Below, piece after piece: positions 1 to 18,122 of a DNA stretch of 18,122 nt; within the stretch, counting starts at the first letter, position 1, and each line of letters starts with the position of its first letter. A program made the position numbers and the translations under genes. The DNA lies in IMG/VR virus record IMGVR_UViG_2778261416_000003, positions 1 through 18,122 of that record. One strand, 5' to 3'. Below the pieces are notes generated by a model that did not search any database, was not told where the DNA came from, and saw only the letters and a program-made list of their open reading frames with translations. This DNA comes from a virus. Taxonomy: Duplodnaviria > Heunggongvirae > Uroviricota > Caudoviricetes.

Positions 1-2091
1 ATGTATGTCATTGCAAAAGAACTGATTGGCGCGCCCGGAATGCCTGCTACAACAAAAGGTATTCGCCAGGCATTACAACGTTACGTACAAGGGAAAAGCT
101 GTTGTTCCCGTCGTCGCTCAGGCTCTAAAGCAACTGAATACAGCATCGACTGTTTACCTGAAGTGACGCAGCAGGCATTACGTGAACGCTACGCCCTGCA
201 ACTGATGACGCAAAAAGCCGATGAATCACCGGCTCCGGTGGTGACAAAGGCCAGACGCTTACCTGCCGTGGTTGATGCGGTGGAGGCATATCGCGGATCA
301 CCCCAACTGATGGTCGAACGCCTCAATGCCCTGACTGAAAACCAACGTAAAGTGGCAGAGGCACGAATAGCGATCGTCAGCGAGGTGCTGAAAATCGCGC
401 AACAACCCGGCTTTAGTTGCGCTAAGGCTATCCGGTTCCTCGTTAACAGCCTGGCACGATCACAACTGGACGAGCGCATTGTGGCAATGGTTGAGACGGC
501 GAACGCCAAAAAGGGAAACAGCCGCGCGTTGAGTGAAATCACGCTGAAACGCTGGATTGCGGCCTTTAACAAGGCACAGAACGCCGCTGAACGCCTGCTT
601 TTACTGGCACCGGGTAAACGCCAGGAAATAAAAGCCGAAGATATTAACTGGCTGCCCGAATTTCTGGCGCAGTATCGCCAGTCAAACGGCCGACCAATGA
701 CCGAGGCTTACGAGGATTTTGTTGCTGAATGGCAGCACCGGCACGCTGATGAGCCTTATATGCTCGATATCATGCCCTCTTATGACACCATTCGCCGCGC
801 AATGAAGAAACTGCCGGAAGTGGTGAAACAAAAAGGCCGGGTAACTGGCAGTGAATACCGTCAGCTTGAGGGATTCACGCGCCGCGACTGGTCCAGAATG
901 CCGGTGAATTATGTCTGGATTGGTGACGGTCACGGCATGAAGCTGAAATGCGCGCACCCGGTTCACGGGCGGCCATTCGCACCGGAAGTGACCTTTGTTA
1001 TCGACGGTGGCACGCGCTTTGTGGTGGGCTGGAGCCTTGACCTGGCTGAAAATGTTTTCGCCGTAGCCGGTGCCATACAGCACGGTATTCGCCATCATGG
1101 CAAACCGTTTCTGTATTACTCGGATAATGGCTCCGGGGAAACCGCCGACGTCCTGGATAAGGAGATTGTGGGGATACTGCCACGACTGGGGATTAATCAC
1201 CCGACAGGGATTGCCGGTAATCCGCAGGGACGGGGCATTATCGAACGGCTTAACCGCACATTACCGATGCGCATAGCCCGTAAATACCGCACCTATTTCG
1301 GGAAAGGAGCAGATCGCGAGACGTTACGTAAAACCAACCGCGATTTACGCTCGGCATTCAGTGCCCTGCAACAGGGCAAACGGCTGAACGCCCGGCAGCA
1401 GTCAGCGATGCGTGATTTACCGTCCTGGTCTGAACTGATTGATGCCATTCGTGACGGTGTTGAGTGGTACAACAACCGGCCGCACGATGAATTACCCATG
1501 AAGCCGAACGGTAAACATTACAGCCCGGCGGAGTTCAGAAAAAAACGCCTGGCGGAAGAGGACACGGAAATTGAATGGCTGTCCGATGTTGAACTGCGGG
1601 ATATGTTCCGGCCGATGGTGGAGCGCCCTGTAAGACGCTGTGAAATACGCTGGCTGAATAATATTTACTACGCGCCCGAGCTGCGTGACGAGCATGGCCG
1701 TAAGGTACTTATCAGCTATGACATTCATGATGCCGAACGAATTACCGTGCGCCGCCCGGATGGCAGCGTGATTTGCGAGGCGGTATGGGACGGCAATAAA
1801 CGCGAAGCCTTCCCTGTCAGCGCGGAATACTACAAACAGCAGCAGCGCCTTAAAGGCATGCGTAAACGCGCAGAGGAAAAAATCCGTGATGCCGAGGATG
1901 AGGTTGTCAACGTGCTGGAGCACAAGCCGCAGGAGCCCTGGCTGGAAAACATATACCGCCCTGTGGGTAATACGGTGACCGTTCAGCAACCGGTCGCTGA
2001 CGATGAACCTGATGAAGAATACGAGCGTAATTTCCAGCGGGGATTGCAACTGCTCGAAGCGAAATTAAAAGAAAGTGATCCGCTGGCCTGA
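1..2091 (+). CDS. A: Mu-type DDE transposase (MuA-like)
   Basis: 696-aa ORF; N-terminus (KELIGAPGMPATTKG...) parallels the Mu A end-binding domain; DDE-like motifs VWIGDGHG, YYSDNGSG and a downstream IIERLNR glutamate; followed directly by a MuB-like gene as in Mu. Confidence 0.9.
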   Translation: MYVIAKELIGAPGMPATTKGIRQALQRYVQGKSCCSRRRSGSKATEYSIDCLPEVTQQALRERYALQLMTQKADESPAPVVTKARRLPAVVDAVEAYRGSPQLMVERLNALTENQRKVAEARIAIVSEVLKIAQQPGFSCAKAIRFLVNSLARSQLDERIVAMVETANAKKGNSRALSEITLKRWIAAFNKAQNAAERLLLLAPGKRQEIKAEDINWLPEFLAQYRQSNGRPMTEAYEDFVAEWQHRHADEPYMLDIMPSYDTIRRAMKKLPEVVKQKGRVTGSEYRQLEGFTRRDWSRMPVNYVWIGDGHGMKLKCAHPVHGRPFAPEVTFVIDGGTRFVVGWSLDLAENVFAVAGAIQHGIRHHGKPFLYYSDNGSGETADVLDKEIVGILPRLGINHPTGIAGNPQGRGIIERLNRTLPMRIARKYRTYFGKGADRETLRKTNRDLRSAFSALQQGKRLNARQQSAMRDLPSWSELIDAIRDGVEWYNNRPHDELPMKPNGKHYSPAEFRKKRLAEEDTEIEWLSDVELRDMFRPMVERPVRRCEIRWLNNIYYAPELRDEHGRKVLISYDIHDAERITVRRPDGSVICEAVWDGNKREAFPVSAEYYKQQQRLKGMRKRAEEKIRDAEDEVVNVLEHKPQEPWLENIYRPVGNTVTVQQPVADDEPDEEYERNFQRGLQLLEAKLKESDPLA

Positions 2092-2173
2092 AATAAAAAA
2101 ATAACCCGAGGGGTGACTCAGGTTATTTGAGGTTTCAGTCTCGGAGAATGCTGTCTCAAGCGAGGTGAATAAT

Positions 2174-3106
2174 ATGACCGATATTAACGATGTAATCAAG
2201 ACCATTGATGAACTTATTGATGGCGGCGTACTGACGCAGTATGCCATCGCCAGAGAGGCGGGAATTTCCGACGGCACATTATCGGCTTTCCGTAAGGGAA
2301 AATATAAAGGCGATAACGCTGCTGTGGCTGCTTCCCTGCGCTCCTGGTATGAGAACTGGAATAAACAAAGCGCACTGCCGGAACCGCCGCAGTTTGTGGA
2401 AACTCAGACAGTCCAGGAGCTGCGCGCACTGTTTCAGGCGGTTCGCCTGATGGGCTGTATTAACGTTATTGTGGGCGTACCGGGTGTGGGTAAAACGGCC
2501 ACTGCCCGTAATTACTGCCAGGAGCAACCAAACACCTGGATGATCACCCTGTCACCCGCGCACTCCAGCGTCACGGAGTGTCTGCTGGAGCTGGCCGATG
2601 CGCTGGGGATTGATTACACCCGCGCGAACAAAGGGGCATTATCCCGCGCCATCCGCCGTCGCCTGATGGGAACGCGTGGACTGGTGATTGTGGATGAGGC
2701 GGATCATCTTGGTATTGACGGTCTGGAGCAACTCCGGGCAATTCAGGACGCCACGGGGATCGGGATGGTGCTTATTGGTAACCCGCGCGGATTGTTTAAA
2801 GGTGGACGCCGCGCCTTTGATGATTTATCGCGCCTGTTCAGCCGTCTTGCCCGTACAAAACAACTTCGCAAGGCCAAAAAGGCGGATGTGCTGGCCATTG
2901 CCATGGCGTGGGGGATCAGTGGTGAGGCCGAGCTGGCCGTCATGCAGGCTATCGCTGAAAAGCCGGGAGCGTTACGCGTTCTGACACATACGCTTAACCA
3001 GGCGTGGCTCACCGCCAGCGGTGAAGGCGCGGCGCTGACAGAAAAACATATTAATGCGGCCTTTAAAGAGGTTTATACCAACCCTGAATTACTCTCACAG
3101 GTGTGA
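2174..3106 (+). CDS. B: Mu B-like transposition target-DNA activator, AAA+ ATPase
   Basis: Walker A GVPGVGKT, Walker B LVIVDEADHL; colinear with Mu B (PEPPQFVETQTV, KPGALRVL); ATG 2174 preferred over the track GTG 2165 because GAGG lies about 8 nt upstream. Confidence 0.9.
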   Translation: MTDINDVIKTIDELIDGGVLTQYAIAREAGISDGTLSAFRKGKYKGDNAAVAASLRSWYENWNKQSALPEPPQFVETQTVQELRALFQAVRLMGCINVIVGVPGVGKTATARNYCQEQPNTWMITLSPAHSSVTECLLELADALGIDYTRANKGALSRAIRRRLMGTRGLVIVDEADHLGIDGLEQLRAIQDATGIGMVLIGNPRGLFKGGRRAFDDLSRLFSRLARTKQLRKAKKADVLAIAMAWGISGEAELAVMQAIAEKPGALRVLTHTLNQAWLTASGEGAALTEKHINAAFKEVYTNPELLSQV

Positions 3107-4458: not shown

Positions 4459-4989
4459 ATGGCTAAACGCGTTACAAAATTAAAGGCCGCAGCCGAGGCG
4501 GCACCGCAGACCCGGGAAGAAGTCAGCCGTGATATCCGCACCCTGGGAGATATTCAGCGAGAGGCGCTGCGCCTGGAAACGGCGATGAATGACGAAGTGG
4601 CAGAAATCACCGCCCGTTATACGCCGCAGATTGAAAATCTTAAAAAGCAAATCAAAGTGCTTTTTAAAGGGATTCAGGACTGGTGCAAAACCAACCGTGA
4701 TGAGCTGACGAACGGCGGCAAAACCAAAACAGCCAATCTGACCACCGGAACGGTGTCATGGCGGCTGGGAACGCCATCATGCAGCGTCAGCCGTGATGTG
4801 GAAGGTGTGATTGAAATGCTGCGCCGTATGGGGCTTGAGCGTTTCATCCGCACGAAAGAGGAAGTGAACAAGGAAGCCGTCCTGGCGGAGCCGGATGCTG
4901 TGAAAGGCATTGCCGGTATCAAGGTGAATAAAGGCGCTGAAAGTTTTTATGTCGAGCCTTTTGAACAGGACGCCGGACTGAATAAATAA
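4459..4989 (+). CDS. gam: Mu Gam-like host-nuclease inhibitor (Ku-like dsDNA end-binding protein)
   Basis: 176 aa; colinear with Mu Gam (MAK...LKAAAEA, GDIQREALRLETAMNDEVAEIT, ANRDELTNGGKTKTANL, ERFIRTKEEVNKEA, EPFEQ); AAGGA RBS. Confidence 0.9.
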   Translation: MAKRVTKLKAAAEAAPQTREEVSRDIRTLGDIQREALRLETAMNDEVAEITARYTPQIENLKKQIKVLFKGIQDWCKTNRDELTNGGKTKTANLTTGTVSWRLGTPSCSVSRDVEGVIEMLRRMGLERFIRTKEEVNKEAVLAEPDAVKGIAGIKVNKGAESFYVEPFEQDAGLNK

Positions 4990-5134: not shown

Positions 5135-5668
5135 ATGATTGATGCAAAAGTGCTTGAAGGGGTTAAAAACTGGCTGTGTATTTATGGCCGCCTGACCTGC
5201 GGTGTACTGGCTGAAAAAATGAATATGCCGCCATCCTCCATGGTTTATTTTCTGCGTGATGCGGTTGATGCAGGCGTGCTGACGGAATGTAACGGTTTTT
5301 ATGATATTCCGCGCCCCCGCCCGGTGCAGCCGGTTCGTCGCAAATGCAGCCAGGAATCTGCGGCTGATGATGTTCAGTGGTGCGGCTTCAGAAAATCCCT
5401 GCCATGGATTGAGGGGCATGATATTCCGTCGATGGCGTGGGAATTTGCTCAGGGCGTTCTGACCTGTGAAACCGTTTATGTGGTGGCTGAAGTTGATGAG
5501 CAGGCCATGAAAGAAGGCGTGCCCCAGTTTGTGATGGCGTATATCGACATACGCCTGGGCGTCATTATCTGCGGTTTAAGCGGCTGGAATATCACTGAAC
5601 ATGTTCTGCGCTACCTGATTGTTGACCGGACAGCAGCGCCTGCCGGGATATCTGCGGAGGTGGCGTAA
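5135..5668 (+). CDS. hypothetical early protein with a possible N-terminal winged-helix DNA-binding region
   Basis: 177-aa ORF after a 145-bp AT-rich gap; GGGGA RBS; N-terminal pattern GRLTCGVLAEKMNMPPSSMVYFLRDAVDAGVL looks HTH-like. Confidence 0.55.
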   Translation: MIDAKVLEGVKNWLCIYGRLTCGVLAEKMNMPPSSMVYFLRDAVDAGVLTECNGFYDIPRPRPVQPVRRKCSQESAADDVQWCGFRKSLPWIEGHDIPSMAWEFAQGVLTCETVYVVAEVDEQAMKEGVPQFVMAYIDIRLGVIICGLSGWNITEHVLRYLIVDRTAAPAGISAEVA

Positions 5669-6186: not shown

Positions 6187-6738
6187 ATGATGAAATTACA
6201 ACCCATGGGACTAAAAGGTCGCGCCCCCGCTCATGTCCGTCCGTGGACACCTGAAGAAGATGCGCTGCTGATTGCGCTTTATTCATCCACCCCGGTTAAG
6301 GATATTGCTGCCAGAATAAAAAGAACTGTCTGGGCTGTATATAACCGGACTGGTGTATTGCGCAGTTCATACCCGGAGTTACTGAAATATAAACACCCAA
6401 GATTTACACCTGATGAAGATAAGTTTATTCGAAAAAATGCCAGAACAATGACCTGCCAGCAAATGGGAGAATATCTCGGACGTAATAAAGATTCTGTCAG
6501 ATGTCGGGCAGGAATGATTGGTGCTGGATTAACAAAGTGCGGAGAGTTACGCCCCGGCACGCACATATCTGATGATGATGTACGTCTTATACGTGCGCTG
6601 CGTGATTCCGATTACCCACGCCGTCTGTCATTCCGGGAAATTGGCGAAAAGTTTGGAATATCTGAACATTCTGCTCACGCAGTTTATTACCGTCGCCGGA
6701 CTGCCGAGGACGCTGTATTACGGGAGTTAACGCCATGA
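6187..6738 (+). CDS. hypothetical early protein with three tandem HTH-like repeats
   Basis: 183 aa; repeated module W/F-T-P-E/D-E-D ... I-A/G-x-x-I/L-x-R-T/N/S (WTPEEDALLIALY..., FTPDEDKFIRKN..., ISDDDVRLIRAL...SFREIGEKFGIS); AGGGGG RBS. Confidence 0.6.
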   Translation: MMKLQPMGLKGRAPAHVRPWTPEEDALLIALYSSTPVKDIAARIKRTVWAVYNRTGVLRSSYPELLKYKHPRFTPDEDKFIRKNARTMTCQQMGEYLGRNKDSVRCRAGMIGAGLTKCGELRPGTHISDDDVRLIRALRDSDYPRRLSFREIGEKFGISEHSAHAVYYRRRTAEDAVLRELTP

Positions 6739-7064
6739 TAACGACCTTATTTGTTGAATCAGATGAACCTCTTGTGTGTGCCGCCGGAATGCCGCTCTGT
6801 GGCGGAACGCTGACCGGTGTTTATTTCGGGGATTTACGCGGTTATCCCTGGCATTCACTGAATGATGCTTTCCCACCTGATATGGAGGCTGCCGTGCTGA
6901 TTGTTCAGTATGGTCACCGTCAGGAGCTGCGCATCGGCCATATGGGGTATGAAGGCTTTTTTGTTGATGAAGAAACCGGAGCCTGCCTTGAAGATGAAGA
7001 CGGACAGGTGACGCACTGGTGTCATATTTCGGCTTTACCGGAATTACGGGAGGTGAATGCGTGA
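6735..7064 (+). CDS. hypothetical early protein (109 aa)
   Basis: ATGA overlap with the upstream stop; GGGAG RBS. Confidence 0.5.
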   Translation: MITTLFVESDEPLVCAAGMPLCGGTLTGVYFGDLRGYPWHSLNDAFPPDMEAAVLIVQYGHRQELRIGHMGYEGFFVDEETGACLEDEDGQVTHWCHISALPELREVNA

Positions 7065-7411
7065 GAAGTTATATTGATAATGAAAAGCTGGAGACAATAA
7101 GCGACTGTCTTAGCTTGCTGGCAAAAATCAAAGAAACTATTGAAGAGATTAAATTTCAGCTTGAATACGCACCATGTGGCGATGATGCATGGCGTAATGC
7201 TGCCAGAAAAGCACTGGCTGTCTTTCAGAAACAACGCCGGGCTGTTGAATACCGCCTTGCTGTATTGCGCCAGGAGGAAAAGGAAAGAAATATAAGACGT
7301 CATGAACGCGTTAATGATTTCCTTGTTCGTGAATTAAAAGAGCGCGTGCCGGAGTCGGTGTTTTTTGAATGTGAGGCTATAGCCCGTAGCAAAGCACTGG
7401 AAACAGATTAA
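7061..7411 (+). CDS. hypothetical early protein (~116 aa, GTG start), probably coiled-coil
   Basis: GGAGG upstream of GTG 7061, which overlaps the upstream stop (GTGA); charged heptad-like sequence. Confidence 0.5.
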   Translation: MRSYIDNEKLETISDCLSLLAKIKETIEEIKFQLEYAPCGDDAWRNAARKALAVFQKQRRAVEYRLAVLRQEEKERNIRRHERVNDFLVRELKERVPESVFFECEAIARSKALETD

Positions 7412-7426
7412 GCAGGCAGGTGAATA

Positions 7427-7735
7427 ATGAGTATTGAATTAAGATCGTCTTATGAATATCGCAAAATCCTTATCGCCGGAGGCATGAAACCGGAAGATGC
7501 AGAGAAATTCGTTTCTTTTATGGATAAAGAATGTGACAAGCGGGATATGCCAGAAATTATTATGGATGACATGATTCTGGATTCAGCCGTGGCGTTAAGT
7601 CCGTTATGGATTGTGCATACTCTTGCGGAAATAGCTAAAAGAAGTGACAAGCAGGCGGCTGTCGCCGCCCTGCGATTACTGGCTGAATTAAGTTGTTCAG
7701 TCAATCCCAATACGTTCTTTGACGAACCTGGTTAA
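7427..7735 (+). CDS. hypothetical early protein (102 aa)
   Basis: AGGTGA RBS then ATG 7427. Confidence 0.5.
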   Translation: MSIELRSSYEYRKILIAGGMKPEDAEKFVSFMDKECDKRDMPEIIMDDMILDSAVALSPLWIVHTLAEIAKRSDKQAAVAALRLLAELSCSVNPNTFFDEPG

Positions 7736-8107
7736 CATTGATTTGGTAACTTCTTTAATTAGATCAAATGGTGCGTCTGTAAACTCCTTTTTGATTCTTT
7801 CAAGGATTGGTTTTTTTCTCAGGGCGTTAGCTAAATCATGCCCCTGCTGGGTAAGCATAATGGGCGTGTTTCTGAAACCAACGCCCAGAGAATGGAAAAA
7901 GAAACCAATATATTTGGGTGTTTCTGACTGCATATCACCATTAACAATTGAGCCATTATCAGCGAGAAGCATAAGATGAAAAACTTTTTTATCCTTTTCC
8001 TCTCCTTCTGCCTCAGCCATGCCCAGATCCTGTAGTGTAAGGAAAGGTGTTTCAGCATCCTGAAAAGTTGTGAGAATACTTAATACTTCATCGTAATCTA
8101 TTTTCAT
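7697..8107 (-). CDS. hypothetical protein (136 aa), antisense moron at the early/late junction
   Basis: Only sizeable minus-strand ORF inside the + strand early operon; visibly AT-richer than flanks; AAAGG RBS upstream of ATG 8107 on the minus strand; 3' end overlaps the 7427..7735 gene convergently by ~39 bp. Confidence 0.5.
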   Translation of the reverse strand: MKIDYDEVLSILTTFQDAETPFLTLQDLGMAEAEGEEKDKKVFHLMLLADNGSIVNGDMQSETPKYIGFFFHSLGVGFRNTPIMLTQQGHDLANALRKKPILERIKKEFTDAPFDLIKEVTKSMLTRFVKERIGID

Positions 8108-8171
8108 ATCGATACCTTTAGTTTTATCCGGGCGGCGTTGCCATGCCGCCTGTTGTTACGGAGACACGATA

Positions 8172-8592
8172 ATGAATCGCGCTTCCCTGATTACCTTAAT
8201 ACATGTCGCAAAACGCGATCTACAGCTTGACCATGAGACCTACACATCCGTACTACTGGCAGCCACCGGCAAACCCAGTTGCCCGTTCAGAACGGTTTTC
8301 TGCCACCGTGCGTGGCTGGTTCCGGGATGATGGCCGGTTATGGGATGTCAATCTGCTGACCGGTGTTTCAGCCCTGCGTTTCGGTATAGAACAGACTGAA
8401 CTGCTGGTCTGTCAGGTGGAGTTTTTACTTGATGAACATAACGGGGAAGTCACCCGGCTGGTACTGGCACCGCGTGACGGCTTTATCGTTCCGGCAGAGC
8501 CGGACAGTAAGGGCCGGGGTGGTTCCGGTGACGATGTTGATGCCTTTATTCGCCAGCAGATGAAAAAACAGGGGATCAGCTTTGATGAATGA
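8172..8592 (+). pseudogene. GemA (Mu gp16)-like gene that changes frame, or a deletion-fusion remnant
   Basis: GGAGA RBS then ATG 8172; frame-0 ORF MNRASLITLIHVAKRDLQLDHETYTSVLLAATGKPSC... resembles the DUF1018/GemA N-terminus from memory but stops at 8330; the only long ORF continues in the +1 frame (8203..8592), has no RBS, and ends overlapping the gp45-like start. Confidence 0.35.
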
Positions 8593-12149: not shown

Positions 12150-12173
12150 GAAGGCCTTCCGGCCTTCTTTATT
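12150..12173. terminator. intrinsic terminator hairpin between the convergent fibre and assembly genes
   Basis: GAAGGCC-TTCC-GGCCTTC (7-bp stem, 4-nt loop) followed by TTTATT on the + strand. Confidence 0.6.
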
Positions 12174-12693
12174 ACTGTGGCTGCTCAGGCCATTTAATGG
12201 CGTTAAATTCAGCTTCTGTTTTAATGGCGGGTAGTTCCATTTTCTTCACCTGACTGATGTATGCCATCCATTGGGTAAGTGCTGCTCTGTCTTCATCGCT
12301 GATGGTGCCCAGTTGTAGCTCCGTTCTCCAGTCATTAATTTTTTCATATGCCTGATTAAGATATGACTGGCGCATTGCTTCCAGTTTTCTTGCGTAGTTA
12401 ACCGGAATACGGGAGATTATGCCATTATCAAACTTCCAGTTTCCTGAAATATCCGTGCCTTCAGGGAGTTCATCGACCTCAACCACAGAAAACCCCGCAG
12501 GATACAGCGCCGAGGCGTCCTGTGATATTGAGCAGATAACGCCGCTGTCAGGTGTTATGCAAAGTTTATATTTTTTGGTGAATAATGGCAGGGATTCGTA
12601 GAAATCCTTACCATCTTCACTCTGGAAATACTGAACATTATTACCATATGGCATATTTTCAGGATAATAACGGGTTATATTTTTTAGTTCCAT
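12172..12693 (-). CDS. tail fibre assembly protein (Tfa / Mu U' / P2 G family)
   Basis: 173 aa; SEDGKDFYE...DASALYPAGFSVVEVDELP and C-terminal WPEQPQ match Tfa-family proteins such as e14 TfaE as remembered. Confidence 0.85.
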   Translation of the reverse strand: MELKNITRYYPENMPYGNNVQYFQSEDGKDFYESLPLFTKKYKLCITPDSGVICSISQDASALYPAGFSVVEVDELPEGTDISGNWKFDNGIISRIPVNYARKLEAMRQSYLNQAYEKINDWRTELQLGTISDEDRAALTQWMAYISQVKKMELPAIKTEAEFNAIKWPEQPQ

Positions 12694-12744
12694 AAAATCC
12701 TCCTGGAAATAAATCTGTTTTAAAATATATTATTTACTGACTAT

Positions 12745-13107
12745 TTATAACTGAGATACCGTAATCCATGTACCTCCGACTAATTTTTGCAGGGGTCTGA
12801 ATGCTATAAAATCGTTTGAAGCATCAACTTTACTGTCAATCTGCAGGCCTGCCATAACATTACCGTACGCAGAGTAATATGCCCCACCGTACATTACCTG
12901 CCTGTTCTCTGCTCCCAGCCTGATATCCTGGATATATCGGGAATCCGCATCCTGCTGTGTTATACCAGAAGTGATGTTTATGTCCTGCGTCCCGTCAAAG
13001 GGAACCCCATTAATATTTCTTGGGGTGGCGAGTCTATTCGCGGCAACGGCGGTGCCGTCCGATGGCAGAGCATTCGCCGCCCTGTTTACCGTTTCCCGTA
13101 AACCGAG
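12745..13107 (-). CDS. alternative tail-fibre C-terminal cassette (S'v-like); start-less, expressed only after inversion
   Basis: Minus-strand frame from the gixR centre to stop at 12745 reads [24 protein letters not shown]...FRPLQKLVGGTWITVSQL, sharing the first ~23 aa and the C-terminal pattern with the + strand fibre; followed on the minus strand by the Tfa gene. Confidence 0.75.
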   Translation of the reverse strand, partial: LGLRETVNRAANALPSDGTAVAANRLATPRNINGVPFDGTQDINITSGITQQDADSRYIQDIRLGAENRQVMYGGAYYSAYGNVMAGLQIDSKVDASNDFIAFRPLQKLVGGTWITVSQL

Positions 13108-13118
13108 GTTTTCAGGAA
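13093..13118. repeat. gix-like recombination site, right
   Basis: TTCCCGTAAACCGAGGTTTTCAGGAA, about 22/26 identical to the Mu gix sequence TTCCTGTAAACCGAGGTTTTGGATAA as remembered. Confidence 0.75.
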
Positions 13119-13183
13119 AGCCAGGATTAACTCTGTTTTATTCCTCATGCGACAATTCCGGCTTTTTATAATAAGGAAATCGT

Positions 13184-13756
13184 ATGCTGATTGGGTATAT
13201 CAGGGTGTCAACAAATGACCAGAATACGGCGCTACAAAGAAATGCGCTGGAATGTGCAGGATGTGAGCTGTTTTTCGAAGACAGAATAAGCGGTAAGACA
13301 AGGGAGCGTCCCGGACTTAAACGCGCATTAAAGCGACTCCGGCCAGGGGATACCCTGCTGGTCTGGAAACTGGATCGCCTTGGACGCAGTATGCAGCACC
13401 TTGTCCTTTTAACAGAAGAACTCCGGCAACGCGGCGTTAACTTCCGCAGCATTACGGACAATATTGATACATCCACTCCCATGGGACGTTTCTTTTTCCA
13501 TATAATGGGCGCGCTGGCGGAAATGGAGCGGGAACTCATTATTGAACGTACACGCGCGGGTCTTGCTGCTGCCCGTGCTCAGGGGCGTCATGGCGGCAGA
13601 CCTCAGAAACTGACAGAGAAAGAGCGGGAGCAAATCGCCCGTTTGCTGGCTAATGGCGAGTCCCGTAAACAAATCGCACTGATATTTGATATTGGCCTTT
13701 CCACCCTTTATCGTTATTTTCCTGCCTCACCAGCTCCGTCACCAAAAGTACCGTGA
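13184..13756 (+). CDS. gin: serine DNA invertase (Gin/Pin/Hin family)
   Basis: 190 aa; MLIGYIRVSTNDQN catalytic-serine N-terminus, WKLDRLGRSM, GRFFFHIMGALAEMERELIIERT, C-terminal HTH; near-colinear with Pin/Gin; AAGGA RBS. Confidence 0.95.
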   Translation: MLIGYIRVSTNDQNTALQRNALECAGCELFFEDRISGKTRERPGLKRALKRLRPGDTLLVWKLDRLGRSMQHLVLLTEELRQRGVNFRSITDNIDTSTPMGRFFFHIMGALAEMERELIIERTRAGLAAARAQGRHGGRPQKLTEKEREQIARLLANGESRKQIALIFDIGLSTLYRYFPASPAPSPKVP

Positions 13757-13841: not shown

Positions 13842-15896
13842 ATGTCAGACTCCAAGTGGAAAATGCTCTCCGCCATGCCCGGAGAGTTTTCAGTCAAGGT
13901 TGCCGGTGGCACGGTGGCATTTATTGAAAGCCCTTTCCGCCCTTCGGGTAATAAAGGGGGGATCACCTTCGCAGACTGCGTGATCCGCTTCAGCACGAAA
14001 GAGCCATTATGGGTAATGCCGGTATCCGGTAATCCCAGTGCAGAAATCACCAGTTCAGGCGTGACTGGCATCATTCCAATCACATCTGACGTGGCCGGAA
14101 CGCTCACGCCCTCCGACTGGAATGCACCGGATAACGCCGGGCCTTCCGGTAGCACGAATGGCAGCAGTTCAAAGCCGGAATATTACTTTGTTGTCATTCT
14201 CGCGGGTCAGTCAAATGGCATGGCCTACGGCGAGGGGCTGCCGTTACCGGATTCGTTTGACCGCCCGGACCCACGCATTAAGCAACTGGCACGCCGCAGT
14301 ACGGTAACGCCCAACGGTACGTCGTGTACATACAACGACATCATTCCGGCAGACCACTGCCTGCATGATGTTCAGGATATGAGCGGGATAAACCACCCGA
14401 AAGCTGATCTGGCAAAAGGCCAGTACGGGACTGTCGGTCAGGGGTTGCATATTGCCAAAAAACTGCTTCCCTATATCCCACAGAATGCCGGGATACTTCT
14501 GGTGCCCTGTTGTCGTGGCGGGTCAGCATTCACCACTGGAGCCGACGGCTCATTCAGTGAGGCCAGCGGTGCTTCCGCTGATTCTTCACGCTGGGGGGCC
14601 GGTAAACCTCTGTATCAGGACCTGGTAAGCCGCACCAAAGTCGCGCTGGCGAAAAACCCGAAAAACAAACTTCTGGCTGTGGTCTGGATGCAGGGAGAGG
14701 CAGACCTTGCCTCAGGAAGCCAGCAGCATAATAGTTTATTCACGGCCATGGTTCAGCAGTTCAGAACTGACCTGGCTCCGCTTGCTGCGCAGTGCGTGAG
14801 TGGAAATGCCACCACGGTGCCGTGGATTTGCGGTGATACCACGTATTACTGGAAAAACGCTGGCACCGATAAATATGAGGCAGTATACGGTGGCTACAAA
14901 GGCAAGGAAGCACAGAAAATTTTCTTTGTACCGTTCCTGACGGATGAGAATGGACAGAGCACGCCAACGAATGCTCCGGCGGAAGACCCGGATATTGTGG
15001 CTGTCGGGTATTACGGTGCAGCATCCCGAACCCAGGGCAGTTTTGTTTCGACACAGCGTGACAGCCATTTCAGCTCATGGGCACGCAGGGGCGTCATTTC
15101 AGACCGTCTGGCCTCAGCTATTATGCTCCATGCAGGGCGCACGGCTGAACTGATGCGCGGGCAGACCGTGACACCACCGGATGAGAAGCCGTCACCTGAT
15201 ACACCATCAAAACCGTCCACGCCACCCGCAGACACCACGACGATGAGTACGCTATTTGCTTACCGGGCATCTGAGTCTGAAGGACGGTTGACACCACAGG
15301 GTTGGGCTGCCGGAGGTGGCAAGGCTCAAATCGTGGATGATGCCGGAGCCAGCGGGGGTAAGGCAATGAAACTGACCAAGGAAACAGGAAGAGCCCCCTG
15401 GTACCTTGAGCATGATGCTGGTAATGGTGCGGACCTGCTGGGTAAAGGTGGTCTTGTCAGTTGTCGTTTTAAACTCGATGGCGCGCTTACGGCTAATCAG
15501 TACGCACTGGCGCTGTACTGGCCGGTTTCTGCCCTGCCGCAAGGGGTTACTCTGGAAGGAAATGCCGGTCATAACCTGCTGGCATCGTTCTACGTACAGA
15601 GCGATGCCACAGACCTTAACGTGATGTATCACAAAGGAAACACGGCGCAGAACACGAAGCTGGGGTCATTCGGCGCATTTAATAACGAATGGCATACGCT
15701 GGGCTTCCGTTTTGCCGGTAACAACAGTATTGAGGTGACACCGGTCATTGATGGTAAGGACGGGACACCATTCATGCTGTCGCAGTCTCCGGTCGGCACG
15801 TTTACGGCAGACAAGTTGCGCGTGACCGATATCACTAAAAATGCGACTTACCCGGTACTGATTGACAGTATCGTGGTGGAAGTGAATAACGCGTAA
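13842..15896 (+). CDS. prophage-type sialate O-acetylesterase (NanS-p-like; SGNH/SASA esterase core, Pro/Ser/Thr linker, C-terminal lectin-like domain)
   Basis: 684 aa; esterase-core motif ILAGQSNGMAYGEGLPLPD, then VPCCRGGSAF and WMQGEADL; PPDEKPSPDTPSKPSTPPADTTT linker; location after tail-fibre genes as for NanS-p in Stx prophages; start codon uncertain. Confidence 0.75.
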   Translation: MSDSKWKMLSAMPGEFSVKVAGGTVAFIESPFRPSGNKGGITFADCVIRFSTKEPLWVMPVSGNPSAEITSSGVTGIIPITSDVAGTLTPSDWNAPDNAGPSGSTNGSSSKPEYYFVVILAGQSNGMAYGEGLPLPDSFDRPDPRIKQLARRSTVTPNGTSCTYNDIIPADHCLHDVQDMSGINHPKADLAKGQYGTVGQGLHIAKKLLPYIPQNAGILLVPCCRGGSAFTTGADGSFSEASGASADSSRWGAGKPLYQDLVSRTKVALAKNPKNKLLAVVWMQGEADLASGSQQHNSLFTAMVQQFRTDLAPLAAQCVSGNATTVPWICGDTTYYWKNAGTDKYEAVYGGYKGKEAQKIFFVPFLTDENGQSTPTNAPAEDPDIVAVGYYGAASRTQGSFVSTQRDSHFSSWARRGVISDRLASAIMLHAGRTAELMRGQTVTPPDEKPSPDTPSKPSTPPADTTTMSTLFAYRASESEGRLTPQGWAAGGGKAQIVDDAGASGGKAMKLTKETGRAPWYLEHDAGNGADLLGKGGLVSCRFKLDGALTANQYALALYWPVSALPQGVTLEGNAGHNLLASFYVQSDATDLNVMYHKGNTAQNTKLGSFGAFNNEWHTLGFRFAGNNSIEVTPVIDGKDGTPFMLSQSPVGTFTADKLRVTDITKNATYPVLIDSIVVEVNNA

Positions 15897-16680: not shown

Positions 16681-16974
16681 TTAGTCCGATTCACGCTTTT
16701 GTAGAATCGTTCCCAGAATGCTATACAGCTCATTAGCCTGTTGCTCCATCATTGAGACGGAGGCTATACGGTGCAAAGTGATTTCAGGAGGTGGCACACC
16801 TCCATCTTCTTGCTGTGGAGGAAAAACATAAGATTTAATAAAAAAGTTGAAGCATATGAACTCTCCCGCACTCGAACTGTATTTGCAGGCATCTGAATAA
16901 TCGGAAAAATAATCATTATAGATTTCCGCATTTTCAATCATTTTTCGATTTCTCGTCGTTACATGATTGTCCAT
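16681..16974 (-). CDS. hypothetical protein (97 aa), divergent from com-mom
   Basis: AAGAGG RBS 5 nt upstream of ATG 16974 on the minus strand; AT-rich; downstream hairpin CTATCCAGC ... GCTGGATAG at 16567..16598. Confidence 0.45.
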   Translation of the reverse strand: MDNHVTTRNRKMIENAEIYNDYFSDYSDACKYSSSAGEFICFNFFIKSYVFPPQQEDGGVPPPEITLHRIASVSMMEQQANELYSILGTILQKRESD

Positions 16975-17097
16975 AGCAGCCTCTTACGCTGGCAATTAAC
17001 CAATTGACTTCTATAAATTAGTTGATTTGTTTGCTTTGCGGTATTCAAATGTACAATCATTCAGCACTTATGCGTTACAGCACCGTTTAAAATTAGT

Positions 17098-17190
17098 GAT
17101 CAAACTCATAAATTTTCGCTAATGACATTTCGTGTTATTTGTTGTATCAATTAAATAAATCAAATCGATCGTTTTTGTCGATCGATTGAG
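17098..17190 (+). promoter_or_regulatory. com-mom upstream regulatory region with three GATC (Dam) sites and a palindrome
   Basis: GATC at 17098..17101, 17167..17170 and 17180..17183; palindrome AATCGATCG-N7-CGATCGATT (17163..17187); Mu mom is known to be controlled by Dam methylation of three upstream GATC sites. Confidence 0.4.
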
Positions 17191-17230
17191 TGATAAAGAT
17201 ATCAACAACAAAGCAGGAGGTTATGCGGCC

Positions 17231-17431
17231 ATGTATCGAAACATACGGTGCCGACATTGTAACAAGCTACTGGCACGAGCCAGCTTCAGTTATCTGGAAG
17301 TTAAATGTCCGCGCTGTAAAACCCTCAATCAAATCACATCTCAGAGCGCCACAGAGCACCCCACATACACAAGGAAATCCTGTCGTGGGGAACAGAAAGC
17401 AAGTTACATCCCGTATCATCAGCACGCCTGA
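17231..17431 (+). CDS. com: Com-like zinc-finger translational activator of mom
   Basis: 66 aa; CxxC...CxxC (CRHC ... CPRC); AGGAGG 10 nt upstream of ATG 17231; overlaps the mom reading frame as in Mu. Confidence 0.75.
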
Positions 17432-18122
17432 ACTTATTCACTATAACGACAATATCGTCGGTTATGGCTCCCGTGAGTTACGGGTTGAGACAATAAGTTG
17501 CTGGCTGGCCCGGCTGGTCGTCGTCAATAAACATTACAGCCATCGTTTCGTAAATAATTCCTACCTTCATCTGGGCATATTTTCAGAACGGGAGCTGGTT
17601 GGCGTAATGCAATGGGGTTATGCCCTTAATCCAAACAATGGTGCACGCGTCGTAACTGGCACGCAGAACCGCGAATATATGGAGCTTAACCGGTTATGGC
17701 TGCATGACTGTATGCCGAGAAACTCCGAATCAAGGGCAATCAGTTACGCGCTCAAACTAATCAGACAACTTTATCCGCAGGTGCAGTGGGTTCAGTCGTT
17801 TGCAGATGAGCGTTGTGGCTGTCTTGGTGTCGTGTACCAGGCAAGCAATTTTGATTATGTAGGCAGTCATGAAACAACATTCTATGAACTTGATGGCGAG
17901 TGGTATCACGAGATTTGCAAGAATGCAATCAAACGAGGAGGACAGCGAGGTGAACATCTGCGGGCTAATATCGACAGAGCCAGTGTTCATAAATTCCGTC
18001 AGTTTCGTTACATCCGGTTTCTGGACAAGAGAGCCAGAAAACGCCTTAACACAAAGCTATTCAAAGTCCAGCCTTACCCAAAACCACAAACAGTTAAAAC
18101 TGGTTTGAAAGAGAGTGAATGA
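17385..18122 (+). CDS. mom: Mom-like DNA modification protein; start uncertain (ORF open from 17190)
   Basis: Long ORF in a different frame overlapping the 3' half of com; GTG 17385 has AGGA 9 nt upstream; rightmost-gene position after gin and com as in Mu. Confidence 0.7.

Follow-up and report, generated by a model that had tools for sequence, protein, structure and literature searches.

The IMG/VR virus record IMGVR_UViG_2778261416_000003, whose whole stretch of 18,122 nucleotides (nt) was analysed and is called the window below, belongs to a Mu-like transposable prophage, one of the E. coli/Shigella type. On its minus strand, between the early gene e102 and the start of gp16/GemA, lies an open reading frame (ORF) at 7697-8107 that encodes a 136-amino-acid protein of the DUF2513/phrog_585 family. 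An earlier note on this DNA, made from the letters alone, had given the ORF exactly these limits, a ribosome-binding site of its own and the standing of the sole substantial minus-strand gene. All three points were reproduced: a Shine-Dalgarno-like AAAGG lies 7 nt from the ATG start, and no other credible minus-strand gene precedes the tail-fibre assembly gene far downstream. The homologues also begin with the same MK(I)D(Y)DE residues, in agreement with the start assigned here. The 3' end of the ORF overlaps the forward gene e102 by 39 nt, which are the last 13 e102 codons; the convergent overlap described in the note is therefore correct, although e102 is not the last early gene. The GC content of the ORF (0.387) and that of its third codon positions (GC3, 0.343) were the lowest among the 23 genes and gene remnants measured. 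The two upstream early genes are AT-rich as well (GC 0.424 and 0.435), and the right flank and the late genes have values of 0.51 and 0.52-0.60, respectively. The AT-richness that the note had set against the neighbours at large is thus pronounced only in comparison with the right flank and the late genes, and slight in comparison with the left flank.

Where the earlier note had seen a product matching no recognised family, profile searches and structure prediction gave a DUF2513/phrog_585 assignment and a winged-helix-like model. Residues 1-134 matched positions 1-126 of the 128 positions of the phrog_585 profile (expectation value, E=7.1e-18). The match to Pfam DUF2513 (PF10711) covered profile positions 1-96 of 100 (E=6.6e-5), and its score of 23.6 bits did not reach the curated gathering score of 29.6 bits. 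The identical RefSeq protein, WP_000687317.1, bears the name 'DUF2513 domain-containing protein'. An exhaustive HMMER search of 1.84 billion cluster representatives returned 256 relatives at E<=1e-3, nearly all of them stand-alone proteins of 130-145 amino acids that aligned over their whole length. Furthermore, the DUF2513 model matched 89 of 115 aligned full-length homologues at E<=0.01, the best at 9e-15. On these profile comparisons, the 136-amino-acid protein and the DUF2513-matched proteins form one continuous homologous family. The protein agrees with this family in its length class and in its full-length phrog_585 match, and differs from Pfam DUF2513 in falling below the cut-off and in having Met in place of the near-invariant Arg84. 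One family homologue also matched YjcQ (PF09639), for which the papers listed were, by title, unrelated. A species-level genome scan added a single locus, in Edwardsiella anguillarum.

Pairwise ratios of nonsynonymous to synonymous substitution rates (dN/dS) in the DUF2513 frame ranged from 0.08 to 0.21, which shows the family to be under purifying selection. The coding signature on which the earlier note had made its reading depend is therefore present, both in these ratios and in the conserved full-length homologues. The minus-strand ORF is confirmed as a real gene, far beyond a chance reading frame, because of the full-length phrog_585 match, the 256 relatives, the low dN/dS and a structural model with a mean confidence (predicted local distance difference test, pLDDT) of 97.2. 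Membership by itself gives no mechanism, DUF2513 being a domain of unknown function, and the extra domains of longer family members were uninformative. No defence family of the PADLOC-DB v2 profiles matched the protein at E<=1, and no match was found in NCBIfam, or in Rfam for the whole window. A literature search with the protein accession found nothing. Thus none of the results indicated the host-benefit, anti-defence or exclusion roles that the earlier note had mentioned for such morons. The broad family alignments were too divergent for pattern scans.

The place of the gene within the prophage was established from intact relatives. By megablast against complete genomes, six E. coli genomes share window positions 7000-8283 at 98.8-99.9% identity, and the homology ends at 8283. 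In these six intact genomes the order is e102, antisense DUF2513, full gp16/GemA, Mor and lysozyme. Strains with the intact prophage include E. coli JE86-ST05, JKHS016 and TOE17. At the junction 8283/8284 of the window, the first 37 gp16/GemA codons are fused to the C-terminal part of a gpP-like baseplate gene, whereas the related locus L001 (comparison loci are designated by L numbers) has a full gp16 gene; this junction occurs in none of the complete E. coli genomes of the collection. Mor, the lysis genes and all else between gp16 and gpP are missing relative to the intact relatives. The window prophage is defective because these genes are deleted. The earlier note had located the gene at the boundary between early and baseplate genes; this boundary is a deletion scar, and the DUF2513 gene is native to the early region, directly before gemA-mor.

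In phage Mu, the semi-early promoter of gemA-mor is annotated at the equivalent spot, where a GC hairpin also immediately precedes the gemA ribosome-binding site. The Mu gem operon region therefore corresponds to our locus in genomic position and in this hairpin. It differs in its gene content, in that neither a DUF2513 gene nor an e102 homologue was found in Mu, which has a 55-amino-acid forward ORF (Mu_54) instead.

Among related prophages the space between e102 and gp16 was polymorphic. DNA of the DUF2513 gene was present in only 6 of 5426 complete E. coli genomes, while the queried early region was matched in 232. Approximately 180 E. coli genomes, including O157:H7, match the window only to position 7671, inside the 3' part of e102, and the O157-type prophages have two small forward ORFs (65 and 98 amino acids) before gp16. 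In L083-L087 and L089 the slot is empty and e102 abuts gp16; L088, a sister contig of these lineages, has the antisense gene, which gives a clean insertion/deletion difference. L052, almost identical to the window, has lost about 365 base pairs (bp) (window 7756-8123) and keeps the last 59 nt of the ORF, and in L010 the gene is truncated. The slot being polymorphic in this way, the DUF2513 gene is a dispensable and exchangeable accessory gene. This bears out the earlier note, which had called it a moron, had suggested looking for different cargo at this position in related Mu-like phages and had named presence as a core early gene in all Mu-like phages as the observation that would speak against it. 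In some relatives e102 itself is interrupted, namely in L009 (from about 6490 onward; also in L074) and in L024 (downstream of 6396); judged by eye, the inserted sequence resembles an IS1 end in L009 and another insertion sequence in L024.

Table 1. Coordinates of the DUF2513 locus and of other features in the 18,122-nt window.
Feature	Position	Strand	Remarks
DUF2513/phrog_585 protein, coding sequence	7697-8107	-	ATG start, 136 amino acids
Shine-Dalgarno-like AAAGG	8115-8119	-	7 nt before the DUF2513 ATG; read from the sequence
Variable slot	7671-8171		antisense gene here; two forward ORFs in O157-type prophages; nothing in other lineages
e102, 102-amino-acid early gene	7427-7735	+	phrog_1988, E=1e-38; convergent neighbour of the DUF2513 gene
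GC-rich palindrome/hairpin GGCGGC-N4-GCCGCC	7654-7669		27 nt past the DUF2513 stop; e102 codons for QAAVAAL
GC-rich palindrome/hairpin GGCGGC-N8-GCCGCC	8131-8150		in the 64-nt gap between the DUF2513 and gp16/GemA starts
gp16/GemA, 5' remnant of 37 codons	8172-8283	+	phrog_286, E=5e-11; divergent from the DUF2513 gene
Mu gpP-like baseplate gene, 3' remnant	8284-8592	+	Pfam GpP_4th, E=2e-8; phrog_177 baseplate hub, E=2e-26
MuA transposase	1-2091		position, BLASTP matches, flanking Pfam domains in related loci
MuB-position gene	2165-3106		position, BLASTP matches, flanking Pfam domains in related loci
Gam	4459-4989		near-identical annotated gene in relative L001
gp11-like gene	5135-5668		small early genes come after

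Dispensability at the level of close relatives was accompanied by deep synteny. Many Mu-like phages (for example L013-L035, the Klebsiella phage Kp4866-3 [L046] and the NCBI assembly L090) encode a relative of the DUF2513 protein with 31-54% identity at this position and in this orientation. Of 38 viral loci, 32 have an e102-family gene directly beside the DUF2513 gene in convergent orientation (15 of the 18 clusters formed at 90% identity), with the 3' ends of the two genes in these loci overlapping by up to 38 nt or lying no more than 19 nt apart. L036 and L043 have the pair between gp16 and Mor; in L037 and L040-L042 it separates the gpV spike gene from the next baseplate gene. In L091 (5001-6608), MuB is followed almost directly by an e102-like gene, antisense DUF2513, GemA and Mor, and most of the early accessory genes of L090 are absent. 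Because position and orientation, and in most cases the convergent neighbour too, are maintained down to 31-54% protein identity, the DUF2513 gene is an old, optional resident of Mu-like phages and not recent cargo.

The e102 product is a helical early protein of about 100 amino acids with the conserved motifs LIASGY, LSxxWI and DKxAAVAAL. Its N-terminal motif weakly resembled RuvA domain III in a PDB profile search (E=0.036), and its C-terminal tail is exchanged along with the slot content.

More distant members of the family were found in other settings. In lambda-like tail regions, the DUF2513 relative is followed by a stem-loop and T-run that read as its own terminator, and in a Klebsiella lambdoid phage the relative separates the lysis genes from the terminase genes. 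The relative in an inovirus prophage is directly downstream of, and co-directional with, an XRE-type repressor gene, and is transcribed divergently from the replication genes. Two other contigs have a relative that adjoins a Phd/PIN toxin-antitoxin pair or sits in an accessory cluster. A placement against or outside the lytic operons is the common theme of these contexts. Compared with known phage morons (lambda bor/lom; P2 old/tin/fun), the DUF2513 gene is likewise dispensable, present or absent among close relatives, counter-oriented, somewhat AT-richer (mainly than its right flank) and located at a transcription-unit boundary, and its distant homologues occur in classical moron sites. It differs from them in being syntenic at 31-54% identity in Mu-like phages and in diverging along with its neighbours.

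Both boundaries of the slot coincide with GC-rich palindromes. The pattern GGCGGC-N(2-10)-GCCGCC occurs exactly twice in the window, against an expectation of 0.04, and the two copies flank the DUF2513 gene and fold stably on either strand. The left copy marks the recombination boundary with the O157-type prophages at 7671. On the minus strand it forms a 9-bp stem followed by UUGUCACUUCUUUU, and this hairpin (7669-7654) is possibly a weak terminator of the antisense gene. We also considered the left copy, which lies within e102, as a selected RNA structure, given a G:C to A:T double change in O157-type phages. This candidate was rejected: other lineages have single mismatches, and the Ala codons of DKQAAVAAL explain the palindrome. 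The right copy has equivalents in Mu, L013 and L046 and is retained in the deletion variant L052; it is a backbone element (the GemA leader) and not a part of the cassette. The pairing of the palindromes may aid cassette exchange or may bound the antisense transcript.

In the AlphaFold2 model, calculated with a 115-sequence alignment, an N-terminal helix is followed by a long central helix (residues 35-50), a beta wing (54-85) and three helices at the C-terminus. The prediction thus amounts to a winged-helix-like core to which two or three helices are appended C-terminally. The model superposed on solved winged-helix domains (MarR/PadR/TubR-like), with 70-84 of the 136 residues aligned in the top matches. 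Foldseek found no significant match in the PDB or among the viral models of BFVD. At the sequence level, the single protein found no solved structure in the PDB and the 115-sequence profile gave chance-level hits only, and neither MarR nor PadR was among the Pfam matches of the protein. In these respects the protein differs from the MarR/PadR/HxlR/ArsR-type winged-helix transcription factors and TubR; it further differs from them in lacking the first helix of the helix-turn-helix, in its acidity and in that no operator was found.

The DUF2513 gene is an optional accessory gene at a fixed e102/gemA slot in the early region of a Mu-like clade, and we propose, with a probability of about 0.4, that its product is a winged-helix regulator or adaptor that is made in the lysogen and acts in trans. 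The gene would form its own minus-strand transcription unit, running from just upstream of 8107, on the gemA side, to about the GC hairpin at 7669-7654. The protein would be produced in the lysogen, where the early operon stays repressed. Once the prophage is induced, RNA polymerase from the early promoter would cross the gene head-on towards gemA-mor, and this crossing would silence DUF2513 through collision and antisense RNA. Expression would be shut off at this point because the polymerase must traverse the gene antisense to reach gemA-mor. Through its winged-helix surface the protein would bind a nucleic acid or a protein partner, and so regulate the prophage state or have a small immunity-type part in it; the gene would not be needed for lytic growth. 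Since the prophage in the window is defective, the role of the gene there could only be host-serving or neutral. In accord with this proposal, the gene is oriented against, or lies outside, the lytic operons in the Mu-like early, baseplate, inovirus, lambda-like and Klebsiella lambdoid contexts, and the equivalent position in Mu is a transcription-unit boundary with an annotated semi-early promoter before gemA.

Several observations weigh against this proposal. A promoter scan detected no sigma-70-like minus-strand site upstream of the DUF2513 gene, and inspection by eye of several lineages gave no convincing -35/-10 pair. The candidate terminator has a weak U-tract and was missed by the terminator scan. 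Mononucleotide shuffles of the 80 nt upstream gave inverted repeats at least as good as the best real one in 19 of 20 lineages. Because upstream palindromes were not enriched across these 20 lineages, there is no candidate operator; the single clear palindrome upstream, the GemA-leader hairpin, occurs also in Mu, which has no DUF2513 gene. The family is acidic, with a median isoelectric point (pI) of 5.3 and 81% of members below 6 (pI 5.2 for the window protein). In the model, a largely hydrophobic helix, with an acidic N-cap or stretch before it, occupies the recognition position, and the first helix of a canonical helix-turn-helix is replaced by a confident loop. Arg84 is conserved in 110 of 115 members, and the window protein has the sole Met in that column. 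A literature search found a mention of DUF2513 without treatment of its function. The fold and two conserved motifs speak for DNA binding by the protein; its acidity, the hydrophobic nature of the recognition-position helix, the loop in place of a first helix and the failure to find an operator speak against it, and we regard the chances as close to even.

The recurrence of e102 next to the gene raises an alternative, which we consider unlikely, namely that DUF2513 and the convergent e102 (phrog_1988) form a two-gene module whose products or 3'-overlapping transcripts cooperate. The module could be a lysogeny/lysis toggle, or could combine a lysogen exclusion factor (DUF2513) with an antidote from the lytic operon (e102). 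The convergent adjacency in 32 of 38 viral loci and 15 of 18 clusters agrees with such a module, as does the maintenance of the pair in three different settings (ahead of gp16, between gp16 and Mor, and among the baseplate genes, next to the gpV spike gene). The pair was retained in L091 despite the loss of most of the early accessory genes of L090, and the divergence of the two proteins was correlated (Pearson 0.58). However, e102 is common without DUF2513, in O157-type prophages and in the empty-slot lineages, and lambda-like, inovirus and island settings have DUF2513 but no e102. Every alternative setting of the pair comes from one phage lineage, so that the adjacency may go back to common descent, and PADLOC gave no match for DUF2513 and a weak one for e102 (E=0.068). 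Because each alternative context represents one lineage and each gene also occurs without the other, the pairing may be inherited synteny rather than a functional unit. The boldest form of the idea is quite improbable: that e102/DUF2513 is an undescribed antisense-coupled module that switches between lysogeny (DUF2513 on) and lytic growth (e102 on), providing superinfection exclusion or defence with a built-in antidote.

A local function at the divergent operon seems rather improbable. According to this explanation, DUF2513 would regulate gemA-mor from a head-to-head arrangement of the MarR type, silencing Mor in the lysogen by binding between the genes. The arrangement itself is present, in that most Mu-like loci have only 33-64 nt between the gene and the gp16/GemA gene that stands head-to-head with it, and the divergent unit of L036 and L043 includes Mor. 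The Mu region holds the semi-early promoter for gemA-mor, the predicted winged-helix fold is MarR-like, and a palindrome lies between both start codons. Mu, however, has this palindrome but not the gene, and the comparison of the lineages revealed no palindrome that was shared or enriched. Moreover, gemA/mor does not adjoin the gene in the baseplate, lambda-like and inovirus contexts, phages without a DUF2513 gene run gemA-mor well, and in the window the target operon is deleted.

To a similar degree, we doubt that the gene is a decaying or neutral passenger in this lineage, derived from a once-functional phage gene. The prophage is defective owing to the deletion at 8283/8284, the Arg84-to-Met change is also found in a 99%-identical Shigella/E. 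coli relative, and close relatives show the 365-bp deletion (L052), the truncation (L010) and the IS1-like insertion in the neighbour (L009); the rarity of the gene (6 of 5426 E. coli genomes) fits as well. In contrast, the ORF is intact, with a DNA identity of 99.8-100% across six complete and independent E. coli genomes and a protein identity of 99-100% among six viral contigs, and purifying selection is strong family-wide. Finally, a chance antisense ORF shadowing a plus-strand feature, as could be imagined in an AT-rich region with other overlapping ORFs on both strands (7719-7979 on the plus strand and 7831-8058 on the minus strand), is refuted for practical purposes by the full-length homologues, the low in-frame dN/dS and the model with a pLDDT of 97.

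Some features outside the locus were also recorded. Among the early genes, the mechanical start of the plus-strand ORF at 7019-7411 is the GTG at 7019, and the RefSeq start in a near-identical relative corresponds to window position 7061 (116 amino acids). The SANT/Myb-like early gene (6187-6738) is intact here and is annotated as frameshifted in L001 (2189-2739; strain JE86-ST05). The downstream gene order in the window is gp45, gp46, baseplate J, gp48, tail fibre, an inverted tail-fibre assembly gene, a Gin-like invertase, a SASA/DUF6645 protein and Mom. The tail-fibre assembly gene (12172-12693, minus strand), an AT-rich gap (GC about 0.35 at 12600-12900) and the Gin-like serine invertase gene (13184-13756) together (12172-13756) resemble a variant Mu G-segment-type invertible region or what is left of one. 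After the invertase gene, the plus-strand gene at 13842-15896 encodes a 684-amino-acid protein that combines a SASA (sialate O-acetylesterase-type) domain with DUF6645 at the C-terminus and is likely to be an accessory or tail-associated carbohydrate esterase. An AT-rich stretch (GC 0.35) within 16800-18122 precedes a Mom-family gene that is cut by the window end (at least 310 amino acids) and whose Mom domain begins only at residue 96.

The observation made in the earlier note thus holds, and its interpretation holds in part. The DUF2513 gene of this defective prophage is an already-annotated member of a DUF family and not a new kind of element. Within that frame, the recurrent pairing with phrog_1988 is the one lead worth following. 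If the protein were a lysogeny-phase regulator or exclusion factor, this would be the first function for a widespread phage DUF (DUF2513/phrog_585), and it would explain why one counter-oriented gene is kept in the one-directional early operon of the Mu-like clade.
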